A stretch of 64,000 nt of DNA from assembly GCA_963845185.1 (NCBI GenBank), contig CAWJRG010000009.1:544001-608000 (forward strand). Reading direction: 5' to 3'. Positions 6,571 to 49,507 of this stretch are shown piece after piece; the first letter of the stretch is position 1, and each line of letters opens with the position of its first letter. The notes under the pieces are model-generated. The model was not told the DNA's origin, searched no databases, and saw nothing but the letters and a program-made list of their open reading frames with translations. Source of the DNA: an uncultured bacterium. Lineage in GTDB: Bacteria; Oederibacteriota; PGYV01; CAWJRG01. The position numbers were made by a program, and so were the translations under genes.

Positions 6571-7332
6571 TTGCGGATTCCTTTAATAGCCGGTAACTGG
6601 AAAATGTATAAGACAATAGATGAAGCTGTGGAGCTGATAAAGACCTTAAAAACGGTTTTAAAAGACGTTCCGCCACAGCAGGTTGAGATAGCTGTTTGCC
6701 CTCCTTTTGTTGATTTACAGGCAGTGGCAGCGCTTGTCGAAGGCACGAATATAATACTTGGAGCACAAAATATGTACGCTGCACAGGAAGGTGCATTTAC
6801 AGGTGAAATATCGCCATTAATGCTCCGCGAAGTCGGGTGTGAATATGTTATAATAGGGCATTCGGAAAGAAGGACTTATTTCAAGGAAACAAATGAGGAT
6901 GTAAATAAAAAAGTAAAAATTGCGATAGAGCACGGCTTGAAGCCTATTATGTGTGTCGGAGAAACCCTTCAGGAAAGGGAAAAAGGCGTCACAAACGACG
7001 TTGTAAAAGACCATGTTCTGGGAGGGCTTAAGGACATACCAAAAGAAAAAGCGCAGGGTATAGTCATAGCATATGAACCTGTATGGGCCATTGGTACAGG
7101 CAAAACAGCCACGCCCGAACAGGCGCAGGAAGTCCATAAATATATCAGGGGCTTGCTTGCAGGTTTATACGATGATAAAACTGCTGAGATAATGCGGATA
7201 CAATACGGCGGAAGCGTAAAGCCGAACAATGCAAAGACATTGATGGCACAGCCGGATATTGACGGCGCGCTTGTGGGCGGAGCATCCCTCGATGCAGGTT
7301 CGTTTGAACAGATTATAAAATTCTATAAATGA
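6571..7332 (+). CDS. tpiA: Triosephosphate isomerase
   Basis: AGNWKM, IIGHSERR, AYEPVWAIGTG, YGGSV; TTG start after AGGAGG. Confidence 0.99.
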   Translation: MRIPLIAGNWKMYKTIDEAVELIKTLKTVLKDVPPQQVEIAVCPPFVDLQAVAALVEGTNIILGAQNMYAAQEGAFTGEISPLMLREVGCEYVIIGHSERRTYFKETNEDVNKKVKIAIEHGLKPIMCVGETLQEREKGVTNDVVKDHVLGGLKDIPKEKAQGIVIAYEPVWAIGTGKTATPEQAQEVHKYIRGLLAGLYDDKTAEIMRIQYGGSVKPNNAKTLMAQPDIDGALVGGASLDAGSFEQIIKFYK

Positions 7333-7368: not shown

Positions 7369-7528
7369 ATACCGCTTGTCTGGGTAGTTTTTATATTAAA
7401 TGAATTATGGATACTATCCGTCAAATAATCCACCGGATTATTTAACTGACCGCTCGGGACTTGAGCGGGTATAAGAGTCCGTAAAATTTTGTCCTTGCTG
7501 TTGACGCTCGACAAAATCAACGGACTCT
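7369..7528 (+). ncRNA. Candidate structured leader RNA motif, copy A (before secG)
   Basis: ATACCGCTTGTC...GGACTTGAGCGGGTAT stem, then AGAGTCC-GTAAA-ATTTTGTC/CTGTTGACG/GACAAAAT-CAAC-GGACTCT stem; matches copies at 45076 and 47716. Confidence 0.65.
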
Positions 7529-7543
7529 AAAAGAGGTGAGAAT

Positions 7544-8020
7544 ATGCTTTATTCAATAGTATGGTTTTTACACGTAGTAATCACATTTCTTCTTATAATC
7601 GTCGTTCTGTTGCAGACAGGTAAAGGTTCTGAAATAGGTTTTGCCCTTGGTGCAGGCACTGCACAGACAATGTTTGGCGCAAGCGGGGGCAGGACATTCA
7701 TAACAAAGTTTACCGTAATTCTCGCAGTTTCCTTTATGTGCACTTCGATATTCCTGGCCATATACCAGTCAAAAAGTCTGGAAGGGTATCATGGTGTTAT
7801 TAAGCCTGTAAAAAGCTCGGGAATGCCCGAAGCTCCAGGAGCCCAACAGCAGGCACCGGCATCGAATGAACAGGGAAATGCAAATGAAATGGCAGTCCCA
7901 AATAATAAAGAAGGCGGAAAATCCCAGGCAAATTCACAGCCTGCGCCCGCGAATAAACCAGTAGTTCCGTCCGGTCAGAATTCAGGGTCAAATCCGCAAC
8001 TGCCGGTGGAAGGAAAGTAA
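7544..8020 (+). CDS. secG: Preprotein translocase subunit SecG with a long Pro/Gln/Asn-rich C-terminal tail
   Basis: Two TM helices, VLLQTGKG...G-rich loop...FITKFT; canonical position after tpiA. Confidence 0.93.
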   Translation: MLYSIVWFLHVVITFLLIIVVLLQTGKGSEIGFALGAGTAQTMFGASGGRTFITKFTVILAVSFMCTSIFLAIYQSKSLEGYHGVIKPVKSSGMPEAPGAQQQAPASNEQGNANEMAVPNNKEGGKSQANSQPAPANKPVVPSGQNSGSNPQLPVEGK

Positions 8021-37090: not shown

Positions 37091-37167
37091 GGGCGCATAG
37101 CTCAGTTGGTTAGAGTATCAGCTCGACAAGCTGAGGGTCACTGGTTCGATCCCAGTTGCGCCCACCA
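37091..37167 (+). tRNA. tRNA-Val (GAC)
   Basis: GGGCGCA/TGCGCCC acceptor stem, D arm, TCAGC-TCGACAA-GCTGA anticodon arm, GGTTCGAT T loop, encoded CCA. Confidence 0.95.
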
Positions 37168-43915: not shown

Positions 43916-45046
43916 ATGAAAAAACTTTTCATATCAGTTTGTTTTACTTGGTTTTTATTTATGTTATTCACTATGGGGTGCAGCAAGAAAAGTCCAACTC
44001 AAGCAGAACCTACTAACACGCCATATGTAATCACAGCAACATTCACAAACACACCAAATATGACAGCAACCACACAGACTGCAGCAACGCAAACAGTTAT
44101 TGCCTTAAAAACAGCTGGCCCTTCAGCACAAGCTACAGCAACAGCCCAGGTACAACAAACAGCAACCATGACTGCGATGTTTGTAACACAATGGGGTAGC
44201 GTTGGAAGCAACAACGGACAACTTTATCATCCTTTTGGAGTAGCAGTAGACAACAGTGGTGGAAGTAGTAACGGAGATGTATATGTTGCAGATAATGGTA
44301 ATAACAGAATTCAAAAATTCAGCAATACAGGTGCATTTATAGCCTCATGGGGAATTGTTGGTGGGCAGGCGGGAAGTGGTGATGGGCAGCTTAATTGGCC
44401 TCAGGGAGTAGCTGTAGATAGTGGTGGAAATGTGTATGTTTCAGAAGTAGGTAATGATCGAATACAAGAATTTAATAGCGCAGGAACATATATAACTAAA
44501 TGGGGTAGTAGCGGAAGCGGCAACGGGCAGTTTAATTATCCCGTTGGAGTTGCGATAGACAATATTAGTGGAGATGTATATATTGCCGATACTGGGAATA
44601 GCAGGATCCAAAAATTCAACAGTACAGGAACATATATAACACAATGGGGTGGTTCTGGAACAGGCAATGGACAATTTAAGGGTTTCGGAGTGGCAGTTGA
44701 CAGCAACGAAGATGTTTATGTCGCAGATACAAGTAATAACAGAATTCAAAAATTTGATAGTACGGGAACATATATAACACAATGGGGTGGTTCTGGAACT
44801 GGTAACGGGCAGTTTAACCAACCCACAGGGGTAGCAATAGACAGCAACGGAAACGTGTATGTTGCAGACTCTGTTAATAGCAGAATACAAGAATTTAACA
44901 GTACAGGTACATATATAACACAATGGGGTAGTAGTGGAACCGGTAATGGGCAATTTGTTAGTCCTTATGGAGTAGCAGTAGACAGTAGTGGAGATGTTTA
45001 TGTTGCTGAATGGACTAATAACAAAATTGATAAATTTCATCCATAA
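43916..45046 (+). CDS. NHL-repeat (6-bladed propeller) lipoprotein with Thr-rich linker
   Basis: Lipobox TMGC; six repeats of F..P.GVAVD..G.VYVAD..N.RIQKF. Confidence 0.93.
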   Translation: MKKLFISVCFTWFLFMLFTMGCSKKSPTQAEPTNTPYVITATFTNTPNMTATTQTAATQTVIALKTAGPSAQATATAQVQQTATMTAMFVTQWGSVGSNNGQLYHPFGVAVDNSGGSSNGDVYVADNGNNRIQKFSNTGAFIASWGIVGGQAGSGDGQLNWPQGVAVDSGGNVYVSEVGNDRIQEFNSAGTYITKWGSSGSGNGQFNYPVGVAIDNISGDVYIADTGNSRIQKFNSTGTYITQWGGSGTGNGQFKGFGVAVDSNEDVYVADTSNNRIQKFDSTGTYITQWGGSGTGNGQFNQPTGVAIDSNGNVYVADSVNSRIQEFNSTGTYITQWGSSGTGNGQFVSPYGVAVDSSGDVYVAEWTNNKIDKFHP

Positions 45047-45075
45047 GGTTTTTAGGTTTAAGTAGTAAAATCTGA

Positions 45076-45172
45076 TACCGCTTGTCCGGTTTGAAACCGG
45101 ACTTGAGCGGGTACATGATTTCGTAATACTTTGCTTGCACCTGTTGACGGCTTGTCAAAGTAAACGAAATCA
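45076..45172 (+). ncRNA. Candidate structured leader RNA motif, copy B (before FGE-domain gene)
   Basis: TACCGCTTGTCCGG...CCGGACTTGAGCGGGTA, then TGATTTC-GTAATA-CTTTG/CTGTTGACG/CAAAG-TAAAC-GAAATCA. Confidence 0.65.
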
Positions 45173-45185
45173 AGGGAGGCGGTCA

Positions 45186-46158
45186 ATGAAAAAAGTTTTA
45201 ATTCCAGTGTTAATTCTCATCGTAATTTTAATTTCAATTACTTGCTCAAAAAAATCCTCACCTACTTCCCCTGCGGCAACAGCGATTCCAACAATTAACT
45301 ATTTGGCGCTTGTGTCGGTTCCTGGCGGGACATTTACCCAAACTGACGGCACAAATATGTTCAGTAATACAATTTCCACTTTCAGTATTGGAAAGTATCA
45401 AGTCACATATGAATTGTGGTACACAGTATATCAATGGGCTATTGCTAACGGTTATACCTTCCAAAACTCAGGTACCGAAGGCAGCGTAGGAACAGCCGGC
45501 GCAGCACCAACCACTTTAAATCAACCAGTAACTACTATAAATTGGCGGGATGCCATAGTGTGGTGTAATGCTTACAGCATGAAAACCGGATTAACGCCTT
45601 TGTATTATCAAGATTCAGGTTTCACTACATTGATCAAAGATTCTACAAACGGAGCATATGGCAGCAGTATAAATACAACAGCAGGAAGTTTTGATAACCC
45701 ATATGTGGATTGGAACGCAAACGGATATAGGTTACCAACAGAAGGAGAATATCAATACACGGCAAGTTATATAGACGGAACGAACTGGACGCCGTATAAC
45801 TATGCCAGCGGCGCAACAGACGCCTATACCGACACCACGGCAACCGCGCTTGTAGCGTGGTATAGCGGGAATTGCAGCAATACGCAGGCTATAGGCACAT
45901 TAGCCGCGAATAAGCTTGATATCTATGGATGATATGTCAGGTAATGTTTGGGAATGGTGCTTTGATTGGTATGGAGCATATCCAACAACTTCAGAAGTAA
46001 ATTATACAGGACCTACAAGCGGATCTGCTCGTATGAATAGGGGCGGTGGTTTTGTTGATGCCGCAGTAAACTTACAAGTGGGCTACCGCCACACTAGTTT
46101 TATGCCAGGACCGTATCAAGCGTTAGTCAACTACGGCTTTCGCATTGCACAGCATTAA
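45186..46158 (+). pseudogene. FGE-sulfatase (SUMF1/C-type-lectin fold) lipoprotein, frameshifted near 45927
   Basis: Lipobox SITC; VPGGTF, VTYELW, PVTTINWRDAIVWCN, GYRLPTEGEY in one frame; DMSGNVWEWCFD...RGGG...GFR continues in another frame. Confidence 0.85.
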
Positions 46159-47715: not shown

Positions 47716-47813
47716 GCACCACTTGTCCTCGGCTTTACAGCCTCGGACTGGAACGGGTGCAAGCAAGAGTAATATTTTGCTGCGCCCTGTTAGCTTGCAA
47801 AATAAACTCTTGC
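47716..47813 (+). ncRNA. Candidate structured leader RNA motif, copy C (before ilvD)
   Basis: GCACCACTTGTCC...GGACTGGAACGGGTGC, then GCAAGA-GTAATA-TTTTGC/CTGTT/GCAAAA-TAAAC-TCTTGC. Confidence 0.6.
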
Positions 47814-47827
47814 ATAGGAGGCTTATT

Positions 47828-49507
47828 ATGAGAAGCGATAAAATGAAAAAAGGAATAGAAAGGACGCCGCATAGGGCGCTTTTTAAAGCAATTGGATACA
47901 CTGAAGAGGAATTGAAAAGGCCTATTATCGGAGTTGTCAACTCATTTAATGAAGTAATACCCGGACATATACATTTGAATACCATATGCCAAGCAGTAAA
48001 AGACGGCATTAGGATGGCAGGCGGTACTCCTATGGAGTTTCCGACAATAGGAATTTGCGACGGAATTGCCATGGGGCTTGAAGGCATGAAATATTCCCTT
48101 GTCAGCAGGGAACATATAGCAGACAGTGTTGAGATAATGGCCAGTGCTTATCTTTTTGACGGGCTTGTGTTTATACCGAACTGCGACAAGATAATTCCGG
48201 GTATGTTAATGGCAGCGGCGCGATTGAATATACCGGCAATATTTGTGTCCGGCGGGCCCATGCTCAAAGGCAGATTCAAGGATAAAGTTTACGATCTGAT
48301 TTCCGGCGGTTATGAATCAGTCGGCGAGTTTATGGCAGGCAAGATAGACGAAGAGACATTGAAAATCAGGGAGGATATCATGTGCCCGACCTGCGGCTCG
48401 TGCTCGGGCATGTACACGGCAAACACGATGAACTGCATGACCGAAGCAATAGGCATGGGGTTGCCTGGGAACGGCACGATACCGGCTGTGTATTCGGCAA
48501 GAATCAGGCTCGCCAAAGAAACAGGCATGAAAATAATGGAGCTGTTGGAAAAGGACATTAAACCGCGGGACATAATGACGGAAAAGGCGTTTAACAACAC
48601 TTTTACTGTTGATATGGCCCTTGGCGGGTCTACCAACACGGTTCTGCATCTTCCGGCCATTGCCAATGAGTGCGGAATAAAATTCGACCTGGCAAAGATT
48701 AACGCGATATCGGAAAAAACACCGACACTTTGTAAACTGTCGCCTTCAAAACTTCCGTCAGGCGGCCAGCACCACATAGAGGACCTTTGCGCGGCAGGCG
48801 GCGTGCAGGCAGTCATGAAAGAACTTTCGAAGAAAAAACTTATAAATCTCGACCTGATTACCGCGACAGGCAGAAAAGTAAAGGATAATTTAAAAACCAC
48901 GCAGAACATGGATGCGAATGTAATCAGGACGCCTGAAAACGCATATTCGCAGCAGGGCGGCCTTGCAATACTTTTTGGAAACCTGGCACCTGAAGGAGCT
49001 GTAGTCAAACAGTCGGGCGTGGCGCCTGAAATGATGAAGCAGGAATGCAAAGCAAGGGTTTTTGATTCTGAAGACGACGCACAAAAAGCAATATTCGGAA
49101 AAAAAATAAAGCCGGGCGACTGCGTTGTCATAAGGTACGAAGGCCCAAAAGGAGGGCCGGGCATGAGGGAAATGCTCGGGCCAACTTCGGCAATAGAGGG
49201 CATGGGGCTTGATACGCAGGTATCTCTTATAACAGACGGCAGGTTTTCCGGCGGCACAAGAGGAGCGGCGATAGGCCACATATCCCCAGAAGCAATGGAA
49301 GGCGGGCCCATAGGTTTGATAAACGAAGGTGATATTATATCAATAGACATAGCGGCGAAAAAAATAGAACTCAAAGTAAGCGACGAGGAACTGGAAAAAC
49401 GGAAAAAAGAATGGAAACAGCCGCCTTATAAAATAACAGAGGGCGTGTTATATAGATATGCGCAGATGGTGACATCTGCAAGCACAGGTGCGGTTTTTAA
49501 GAAATAA
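47828..49507 (+). CDS. ilvD: Dihydroxy-acid dehydratase
   Basis: [42 protein letters not shown] 47828 after AGGAGG. Confidence 0.98.

Follow-up and report, generated by a model that had tools for sequence, protein, structure and literature searches.

A Two-Hairpin Repeat Family Located Flush with Shine-Dalgarno Sequences in an Uncultured Bacterium of the Phylum Oederibacteriota

INTRODUCTION

Small folded repeats are known to occur in bacterial mRNAs, but we know of none that has been described so consistently just before the ribosome-binding site as the element reported here. This element, a pair of adjacent hairpins termed P1 and P2, was identified in a 64,000-nucleotide (nt) stretch of DNA from an uncultured bacterium of the phylum Oederibacteriota (GenBank assembly GCA_963845185.1, contig CAWJRG010000009.1, positions 544,001 to 608,000), which is referred to below as the window. 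It is located next to Shine-Dalgarno (SD) sequences, even within essential gene pairs such as tpiA-secG. Its closest described analogue is the Neisseria repeat REP2. REP2 and the similar IR elements of Borrelia plasmids are described as intergenic repeats of 120 to 150 bp that have no terminal inverted repeats (PMC3184786). For REP2, two internal stem-loops were predicted at the RNA level; it is found in the 5' untranslated region of unrelated open reading frames (ORFs), carries its own promoter, ribosome-binding site, and ATG, is present in about 26 copies, and is stated to have an unknown mode of proliferation (PMC3184786). The present element resembles REP2 in its two internal stem-loops, its lack of terminal inverted repeats, and its location immediately upstream of unrelated ORFs. 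Unlike REP2, it has no promoter, its flanks are unique, and the junctions between its tandem copies have no SD sequence; furthermore, there are at least 121 copies, many of them intercistronic, the stems covary, and relatives have non-leader copies.

Another group for comparison is that of the pneumococcal repeats BOX (composed of boxA, boxB, and boxC), RUP, and SPRITE, modular, mosaic, and tightly folded repeats with about 100 copies that have expanded in one species and are rarer in its relatives (PMC3049150). BOX elements are co-transcribed with neighboring genes and are thought to affect their expression, and terminal inverted repeats, target-site duplications, and a tie to insertion sequence transposases are reported for both BOX and RUP (PMC3049150). 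Unlike BOX and RUP, the element studied here was found with neither terminal inverted repeats, nor target-site duplications, nor a Y1 transposase, and that source does not report BOX as being flush with SD sequences. The likeness to BOX consists in an element that is modular, mosaic, tightly folded, placed for co-transcription, and expanded in one genome.

Gene-less elements derived from IS200/IS605 and the REP/RAYT system are hairpin repeats without terminal inverted repeats or target-site duplications that are mobilized as single-stranded DNA (ssDNA) and need a Y1 HUH transposase and a fixed 5' target tetranucleotide. The present element is likewise based on hairpins and lacks both terminal inverted repeats and target-site duplications, but membership in these groups was rejected since this genome has no match to the Y1 HUH transposase profile PF01797 and the copies have no conserved 5' target oligonucleotide. 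Integron attC sites are imperfect hairpins with extrahelical bases, a variable terminal structure, an orientation parallel to the ORF, and R box AAC/GTT termini. Like attC, the element has a paired base, unpaired or extrahelical bases, a variable tip, a high copy number, the orientation of the ORF, and a location just upstream of the next ORF. Unlike attC, it has no R box AAC/GTT termini, it was found with no integron integrase above the cut-off and no contiguous array of accessory-gene cassettes, and its copies are dispersed before core genes that are syntenic in relatives; attC membership was rejected on these grounds.

RESULTS

Compensatory change maintains the two-hairpin fold

An earlier sequence-only reading had noted a two-hairpin motif at three places in the window, termed here copies A, B, and C. 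Copy B was found to be a member of a family of modular hairpin pairs of roughly 100 nt, whose range is restricted to a single order within an uncultured phylum. Its parts are as follows.

45076..45113, plus strand: hairpin P1, with basal stem UACC/GGUA, distal stem GUCC/GGAC, and a variable tip
within 45076..45113, plus strand: P1 internal loop, conserved and asymmetric, 5' GCUU versus 3' UUGAGCG
45115..45173, plus strand: hairpin P2; its basal stem of 9 bp covaries and its tip is variable, with an inner stem between them
within 45115..45173, plus strand: P2 internal loop, conserved, GUAAUA / UAAAC
45173-45179, plus strand: SD sequence AGGGAGG, flush with the P2 end at 45173, read directly from the sequence
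45186-45188, plus strand: start codon ATG that opens the downstream gene

A MAFFT alignment of 28 copies (A1; 22 from this genome and 6 from relatives), made without a structure reference, was analyzed with RNAalifold, which returned 27 pairs arranged in two hairpins. The consensus P1 has, above a base of 4 bp, an invariant asymmetric internal loop (5' NCUU versus 3' UKGARCG) and then a distal stem of 4 bp that ends in a free tip. It is followed after 1 to 3 nt by P2, in which a basal stem of 9 bp leads through the conserved loop GUAAKA / YAAAC to an inner stem, likewise with a free tip. The nucleotides of the P1 loop were identical in all 28 copies across genera. In this alignment 93.1% of cells were found to be paired, versus 72.2% in column shuffles, none of which (0/500) reached the observed value, and this fraction fell to 32 to 40% when the partners were slid against each other. 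Double changes were present at 19 of the 27 pairs; cells changed on both sides numbered 141, versus 40 expected, and the covariation score was 0.49 versus 0.13. The P1 basal pair covaries, being UA in 21 rows and CG in 6, and changes on both sides were detected at 7 of the 9 P2 basal pairs. The two-hairpin fold is thus maintained by compensatory change, and the covariation that had been proposed from the three window copies holds across the family.

Copy B folds at -40.6 kcal/mol with a z-score of -7.0 (200 shuffles), and copy C has a z-score of -4.8; the reverse strand of copy B folds equally well (z = -7.7). The end of the helix meets the SD core exactly, and covariation was also observed between the linker tetranucleotide and the 4 nt in front of GGAGG (CAAG...CUUG, UAAG...CUUA). 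The pseudoknot between the P2 loop and P1 that the sequence-only reading had considered was rejected as a general feature, because CUGUU is present at the P2 tip in only 46 of 121 copies, the remaining ones including UUCG-type tips.

Copies are numerous and placed before start codons of unrelated genes

A regular-expression count in the assembly gave 83 to 126 sites, nhmmer 174 matches, of which 121 are near full length, and covariance model R1 at least 149 matches at E<=0.001. The copy number is therefore stated as a lower bound, at least 121 near-full-length copies where three had been counted by eye, spread over 8 of the 11 contigs (C1, C5, C6, C8, C9, C10, and C11 in the model matches) and located before core genes.

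With a crude ORF map (2913 ORFs), 101 of the 121 copies (83%) were found to be on the same strand as the gene on their 3' side, and the distance from the end of the element to the start codon peaks at 13-14 nt. The link to start codons noted earlier was borne out by this tabulation, and the orientation is not random. An automatic rule that requires an ORF of at least 50 amino acids classified 73 of the 121 copies as SD-flush, ending 0-4 nt before the SD sequence and start codon of a same-strand gene; 9 lead into the next unit of an array, 1 into a second repeat, and 38 were unclassified, in at least 12 of which inspection by eye revealed an SD sequence and a start codon absent from the ORF map. 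A start codon is present 5-25 nt downstream of 84 copies, and 63 of these also have a same-strand gene upstream. Since 27 of the 63 begin no more than 60 nt after the stop of that gene, many copies are intercistronic rather than 5'-terminal leaders. Nearly all copies are in sense orientation and occupy the short interval between the preceding stop or promoter and the SD sequence, so that most are placed for co-transcription with the downstream gene. A promoter in or attached to the repeat was rejected for this genome: there is no conserved -35/-10, the flanks are unique, and scans with consensus sequences gave results at the level of chance.

In agreement with what had been noted for three genes, the 84 downstream genes share no function and form a mixed set of housekeeping and envelope or lipoprotein genes, including lysA-, argG-, purQ-, pyrB-, metK-, ilvD-, fabD-, atpA-, rplC-, hpf-, murC-, and glpK-like genes, names that were mostly read from N-termini. 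Signal-peptide-like N-termini are not enriched (30/84, compared with 914/2913 ORFs genome-wide).

Copies behave as a modular repeat

Discrete P2 subfamilies and P1-tip types are recombined in mosaics. P1 was present in 114 of 115 copies that had been found through P2 alone, and its core departs from the consensus in about 1.3-2.3% of cells in these copies, so that they differ little among themselves; the disrupted stem pairs of collapsed variants gave an estimate of roughly 4% per nucleotide. On the minus strand of contig C9 (916483-917175), seven near-identical units form a tandem array with an exact period of 100 bp, and smaller arrays of 2-3 units are present in the relative G014. The junctions of the tandem array have no SD sequence, so that the latter is not demonstrably part of the repeat unit. 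The sequences flanking copies A, B, and C on the 5' side each occur only once, which gives the repeat a sharp 5' edge. Its 5' end reads YACCNCUUG, whereas the 3' end is subfamily-specific and pairs with alignment columns 48-54 and not with the 5' terminus. Among 74 solo copies, the 5' side showed no conserved target, information being confined to positions -1 (0.84 bits) and -2 (0.53 bits), both purines. The tips are free in length, ranging from 6 to more than 90 nt when nested inserts are included.

Several other modules accompany the element. Module X, a second two-hairpin repeat with about 50 copies genome-wide (GGGTAG…CTACCC followed by GTCAAATAGTCC…GGACTATTTGAC), is mostly nested in P1 or P2 tips or located between P2 and the SD sequence, always in the orientation of the host element. 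A further module that travels with the element is a unit of roughly 90 nt (CTTGACAGAGTTTGATTTTG … CATGGAG; composites on C5 and C9), and two tails were observed, GTTTTCAATTTTCAAT after one P2 subfamily and AGGGAKGGAGCRTATTAGAG as the other. P2-like hairpins without P1 occur in the relatives G003, G021, and G008.

The family is rare in relatives and mostly not in leaders

Of the 99 genomes of the phylum searched with model R1, 13 gave matches, all within the order of the window (13/24, versus 0/75 outside it), with more than 149 copies in this genome and 18, 6, 4, 4, 3, 2, 2, 2, 1, 1, 1, and 1 in the others. This genome is the sole member of its family among those compared, so that comparisons were made at about 75% amino acid identity. 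The distribution indicates that the family is old at low copy number, with 1-18 copies in 12 sister genomes, and that it has expanded in this genome to at least 121 full-length copies.

All five relatives examined have ilvD orthologues with ordinary short leaders that lack the element, and the element was also absent from 120 of 120 metagenome loci containing the ilvD start (degenerate pattern; nhmmer at E<=0.01). The tpiA-secG spacer, which measures 211 nt here, is 13-30 nt long (stop, SD, ATG) and without the element in 5/5 relatives from three families. The neighbors of both ilvD and tpiA-secG are kept in relatives, which have the unoccupied state at these two orthologous sites.

The copies in G014, G023, G020, and G019 are not leaders. 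In all 20 copies examined in these four genomes, P2 is followed by a stable hairpin (-8.5 to -28.7 kcal/mol) that begins no more than 25 nt further on and is usually flanked by an A-run and a T-run, and most have an AT-rich -10-like box 1-3 nt 5' of P1. They look like small transcription units; the box is palindromic, however, and the candidate terminators are bidirectional, so that either strand may be the transcribed one. With a -10-like box this close to P1, a normal transcription start would exclude the covarying basal stem. In 11 of 12 f10-family loci, the first long ORF beyond P2 runs on the opposite strand, and a copy in the TPR-RadC spacer, common to four genomes, is antisense to both genes. 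Another copy, in the fabG-acpP spacer, is syntenic in five relatives (loci L042 in G019, L044 in G009, L045 in G017, L046 in G016, and L058 in G021); it is antisense to the fab operon, and its P2 end overlaps the fabG stop. This genome has no copy in the fabG-acpP spacer and one before fabD. Two SD-flush copies were found in G001. No conserved protein neighbor of obvious meaning was found in the relatives (TPR, RadC, Fer4, PGM, GatB, L19, and DEAD helicase). The relatives therefore do not bear out the proposal of a lineage-wide cis-acting RNA: they have 1-18 copies, mostly non-leaders, and the ilvD and tpiA-secG sites are empty.

Searches for known families

As had been anticipated, no Rfam family was matched. 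Rfam 15 returned nothing but one tRNA for the whole window at the gathering threshold, no match at E<=10, ribozymes and riboswitches included, for the region 44900-45300 around copy B, and no match at E<=1 for six loci from relatives. The tRNA gene, at 37091-37164, is the sole Rfam match in the window. Searches of the open-paper literature by phylum names, by repeat, SD, and MITE (miniature inverted-repeat transposable element) terms, and by the core motifs returned no description of the present element. A scan of contigs with the P1 pattern gave, among the matches listed, single ones in unrelated phyla, which is uninformative, as by our own estimate about 400 matches are expected by chance in 596 Gb. 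A comparison by eye with K-turns, loop E, tetraloop-receptor motifs, and the loops of the hairpin ribozyme showed no match to the element.

Copies A, B, and C in the window

The three copies are present where they had been reported, were scored by the covariance model, and all have the SD-flush geometry. The scores are 84.1 bits for B (45076-45173), 83.3 bits for C (47717-47815), and 60.8 bits for A (7448-7529), which is split by a nested insert. With the model filters off, the window has no real matches besides these three. Their positions and those of the neighboring genes are listed below.

6571-7332: tpiA upstream of copy A (PF00121, TIM)
7370..7529, plus strand: copy A in the tpiA-secG spacer, with the P1 5' arm from 7370, the P1 3' arm at 7456-7471, and P2 at 7473-7529
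7532-7539, plus strand: SD sequence AGAGGTGA of copy A, before the secG ATG at 7544
7544-8020, plus strand: secG served by copy A (PF03840, SecG; ATG 7544)
43916..45046, plus strand: NHL-repeat gene upstream of copy B, on the same strand, with its stop 29 nt before B
45186..46158, plus strand: FGE-sulfatase-family lipoprotein gene behind copy B (PF03781 match)
47716..47815, plus strand: copy C, with P1 base variant GCACC/GGUGC and P2 subfamily GCAAGAG/CUCUUGC
47816-47821, plus strand: SD sequence AGGAGG of copy C, with ATG 47828
47828-49507, plus strand: ilvD served by copy C (PF00920 and PF24877)

In copy A the P1 tip is replaced by a nested module X (about 7382-7446). With the stop of the NHL-repeat gene 29 nt before it, copy B fills an intercistronic spacer. 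The FGE gene consists of two overlapping ORFs, 45186-45932 and 45916-46158, to which Pfam assigned profile positions 5-179 and 180-254 of PF03781, respectively, and the split is a frameshift or an assembly error.

A group II intron next to start codons

A group II intron, about 1.9 kb long, is present in this genome in six copies with 99.3-99.9% identity. Of five genomes tested, this is the only one with a reverse transcriptase, for which the 4 relatives, G001 among them, gave no match. The following copies, all outside the window, were located.

C9, about 699945-701856, in this genome (G000; locus L305, 246-2157): group II intron copy
C9:811636-812325, C9:845477-846166, C10:383780-384469, C10:832145-832834, and C11:62007-62696: reverse transcriptase domains of the other five intron copies

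The Rfam matches are RF02005 (100.4 bits) and RF00029 (49.1 bits), and the ORF contains PF00078. In all six cases the insertion point lies a single base past the ATG of a gene of lipoprotein type (…GGAGGCGGTTATGA|GTGCG…). The 3' end of the intron has its own SD sequence and an ATG that is in frame with the exon behind it, so that the host gene could still be translated even if the intron were not spliced out. A two-hairpin element is located directly upstream of one intron copy, and the gene start behind copy B (45173-45195 of the window) resembles an unoccupied intron site. No sequence link between the intron and the two-hairpin repeat was found.

DISCUSSION

We read the two-hairpin family as a recently amplified, non-autonomous structured repeat that is co-transcribed as a leader or an intercistronic module, a reading whose chances of being right and of being wrong we judge to be equal. 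The results establish the amplification, the orientation and position of the copies, and the empty orthologous sites. Copies would arise by copy-and-paste in trans by means of some host or mobile-element enzyme, which would recognize P1 as a folded hairpin by way of the invariant asymmetric loop (4x7) that it contains. The SD-flush placement would reflect a preferred insertion next to SD sequences, combined with the loss of any copies that disrupt a gene. As part of the mRNA, the pair of stable hairpins is probably a leader that is tolerated or of slight use; it could shield the ribosome-binding site from the sequence and translation upstream of it or buffer mRNA decay.

A number of observations weigh against the amplified repeat. 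Its mobilizing enzyme was not found, so that the term mobile is inferred from the distribution only: with a genome completeness of 99.4% and 10 candidates scored, there is no Y1 transposase PF01797 in this genome (8 matches each are present in G014 and G001), and the best match to the integron integrase TIGR02249 reached 89.6 bits versus a cut-off of 265, with 0/5 genomes above it. Terminal inverted repeats are absent from the 28-copy alignment, and there is no target-site duplication, since 72 junctions share 0 nt (46 cases), 1 nt (15), 2 nt (5), 3 nt (2), 4 nt (3), or 6 nt (1). Of the alternative that the sequence-only reading had named, a MITE or REP repeat, the recently amplified mosaic repeat stands, whereas MITE membership was rejected because both of these defining features are missing. 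The closest metagenome ilvD has only 87% amino acid identity, and no recent empty site was seen. The extreme bias in orientation and position is not typical of selfish repeats, and a P1 loop that is invariant throughout the order, together with covarying stems, would also fit a functional RNA. In the P2 basal stems, G-U pairs and A-C mismatches are equally frequent (9 each among 432 cells), as they nearly are in alignment A1 (about 13 and 14); without an excess of G-U over A-C, the helices are kept Watson-Crick on both strands, and selection for a fold of the sense RNA is not demonstrated. Finally, the predicted accessibility of the SD sequence, computed by partition function for 73 element genes and 250 controls, was 0.515 versus 0.488 (p = 0.34). 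For positions -14 to +3 the values were 0.548 versus 0.503 (p = 0.02), and the idea of an SD-exposing insulator was rejected, the difference from controls being weak or absent.

Some of these points lead to the possibility that the family is a functional RNA module, which we consider doubtful. The P1 loop and the P2 internal loop would bind a lineage-specific protein or the ribosome, giving rise to a post-transcriptional regulon of about 75-85 mRNAs, and the copies in sister genera would be small RNA decoys, a logic that can be likened to that of the Csr/Rsm system. The invariance of the P1 loop in 28/28 copies across genera amid covarying stems argues for such a module, as do the helix that ends at the SD core with its covarying linker, the stable hairpin behind 20/20 copies examined in four relatives, most of which also have a -10-like box, and the synteny of some relatives' loci across four genomes, as in the TPR-RadC spacer. 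Near-identical, arrayed, and nested copies are nevertheless better accounted for by a recent amplification than by some 80 operators, each maintained on its own, G-U pairs are not in excess of A-C mismatches, the palindromic -10-like box of the relatives is too near P1 and the terminators are bidirectional, the copy in the fabG-acpP spacer of five relatives is antisense, and no partner protein is known. A working RNA device in the form of a portable leader, which would dock a lineage-specific protein or the 30S subunit at the SD sequence and place about 75-85 mRNAs, essential operons included, under one control, with decoy small RNAs in the sister genera, is in our opinion unlikely. As to how the copies spread, a bolder variant would have the group II intron supply the reverse transcriptase that turns RNA into new copies; this intron has six near-identical copies here, is absent from 4/4 relatives, and itself homes into SD-ATG sites. 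The SD-flush copies of G001, a genome without a reverse transcriptase match, count against this variant.

It is also conceivable, if improbable, that the selected form is a folded ssDNA hairpin in which P1 is an attC- or REP-like recombination or transposition site for some ssDNA recombinase. The architecture of P1, which is paired at its base, has extrahelical unpaired bases by which the strands can be told apart, and varies in its terminal structure, would suit such a site, and so would strands that fold equally well, stems that are strictly Watson-Crick without a wobble bias, a tip that is free to vary from 6 to more than 90 nt, copies antisense to flanking genes in relatives (fabG-acpP, TPR-RadC, and 11 of the 12 f10-family loci), and the lack of terminal inverted repeats and target-site duplications, as in attC or IS200/IS605-type elements. 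This is opposed by the integron integrase score far below its cut-off (89.6 versus 265 bits), by a genome without Y1 transposase, by purines at -1 and -2 in place of a conserved 5' target tetranucleotide, and by copies dispersed before core genes with no cassette arrays, and the same-strand bias of 83% would need an extra explanation. It is highly improbable that the element is a riboswitch responding to a global signal, or a ribozyme that cleaves itself and acts as a natural insulator before the ribosome-binding site. Two adjacent helical domains with conserved internal loops and a 1-3 nt joint directly 5' of the SD sequence are what such an RNA might look like, and as no known family was matched, a new class is possible. 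However, there is neither an expression platform nor an alternative pairing that sequesters the SD sequence, the accessibility of which is like that of controls; the seven-unit tandem array and the nested repeats do not fit, nor do the unrelated essential genes downstream (within tpiA-secG and before an L3-like gene, for instance), the antisense placement in relatives, and the lack of any Rfam ribozyme or riboswitch match at E<=10. Membership in the riboswitches was rejected on the mixed functions of the 84 downstream genes and the missing expression platform, and the riboswitch that the sequence-only reading had listed among its options has become unlikely in view of copies that are nearly identical, arranged in tandem, or interrupted by nested insertions and that precede about 75-85 unrelated genes; the hairpins are unlikely to be a ligand-sensing switch.

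The placement of the repeat is of consequence whichever way it arose. If it is targeted, it would imply an insertion mechanism that reads translation-initiation regions, and if the variant of a spread by reverse transcription were true, the family would be a bacterial SINE-like element aimed at ribosome-binding sites. If the placement is selected, it would imply a portable RNA module that benefits or controls the translation of many genes. The element is a compact natural part of about 100 nt that is tolerated before dozens of genes, which makes it a candidate expression insulator, and it offers a handle on gene regulation in a candidate phylum that has no cultured members.

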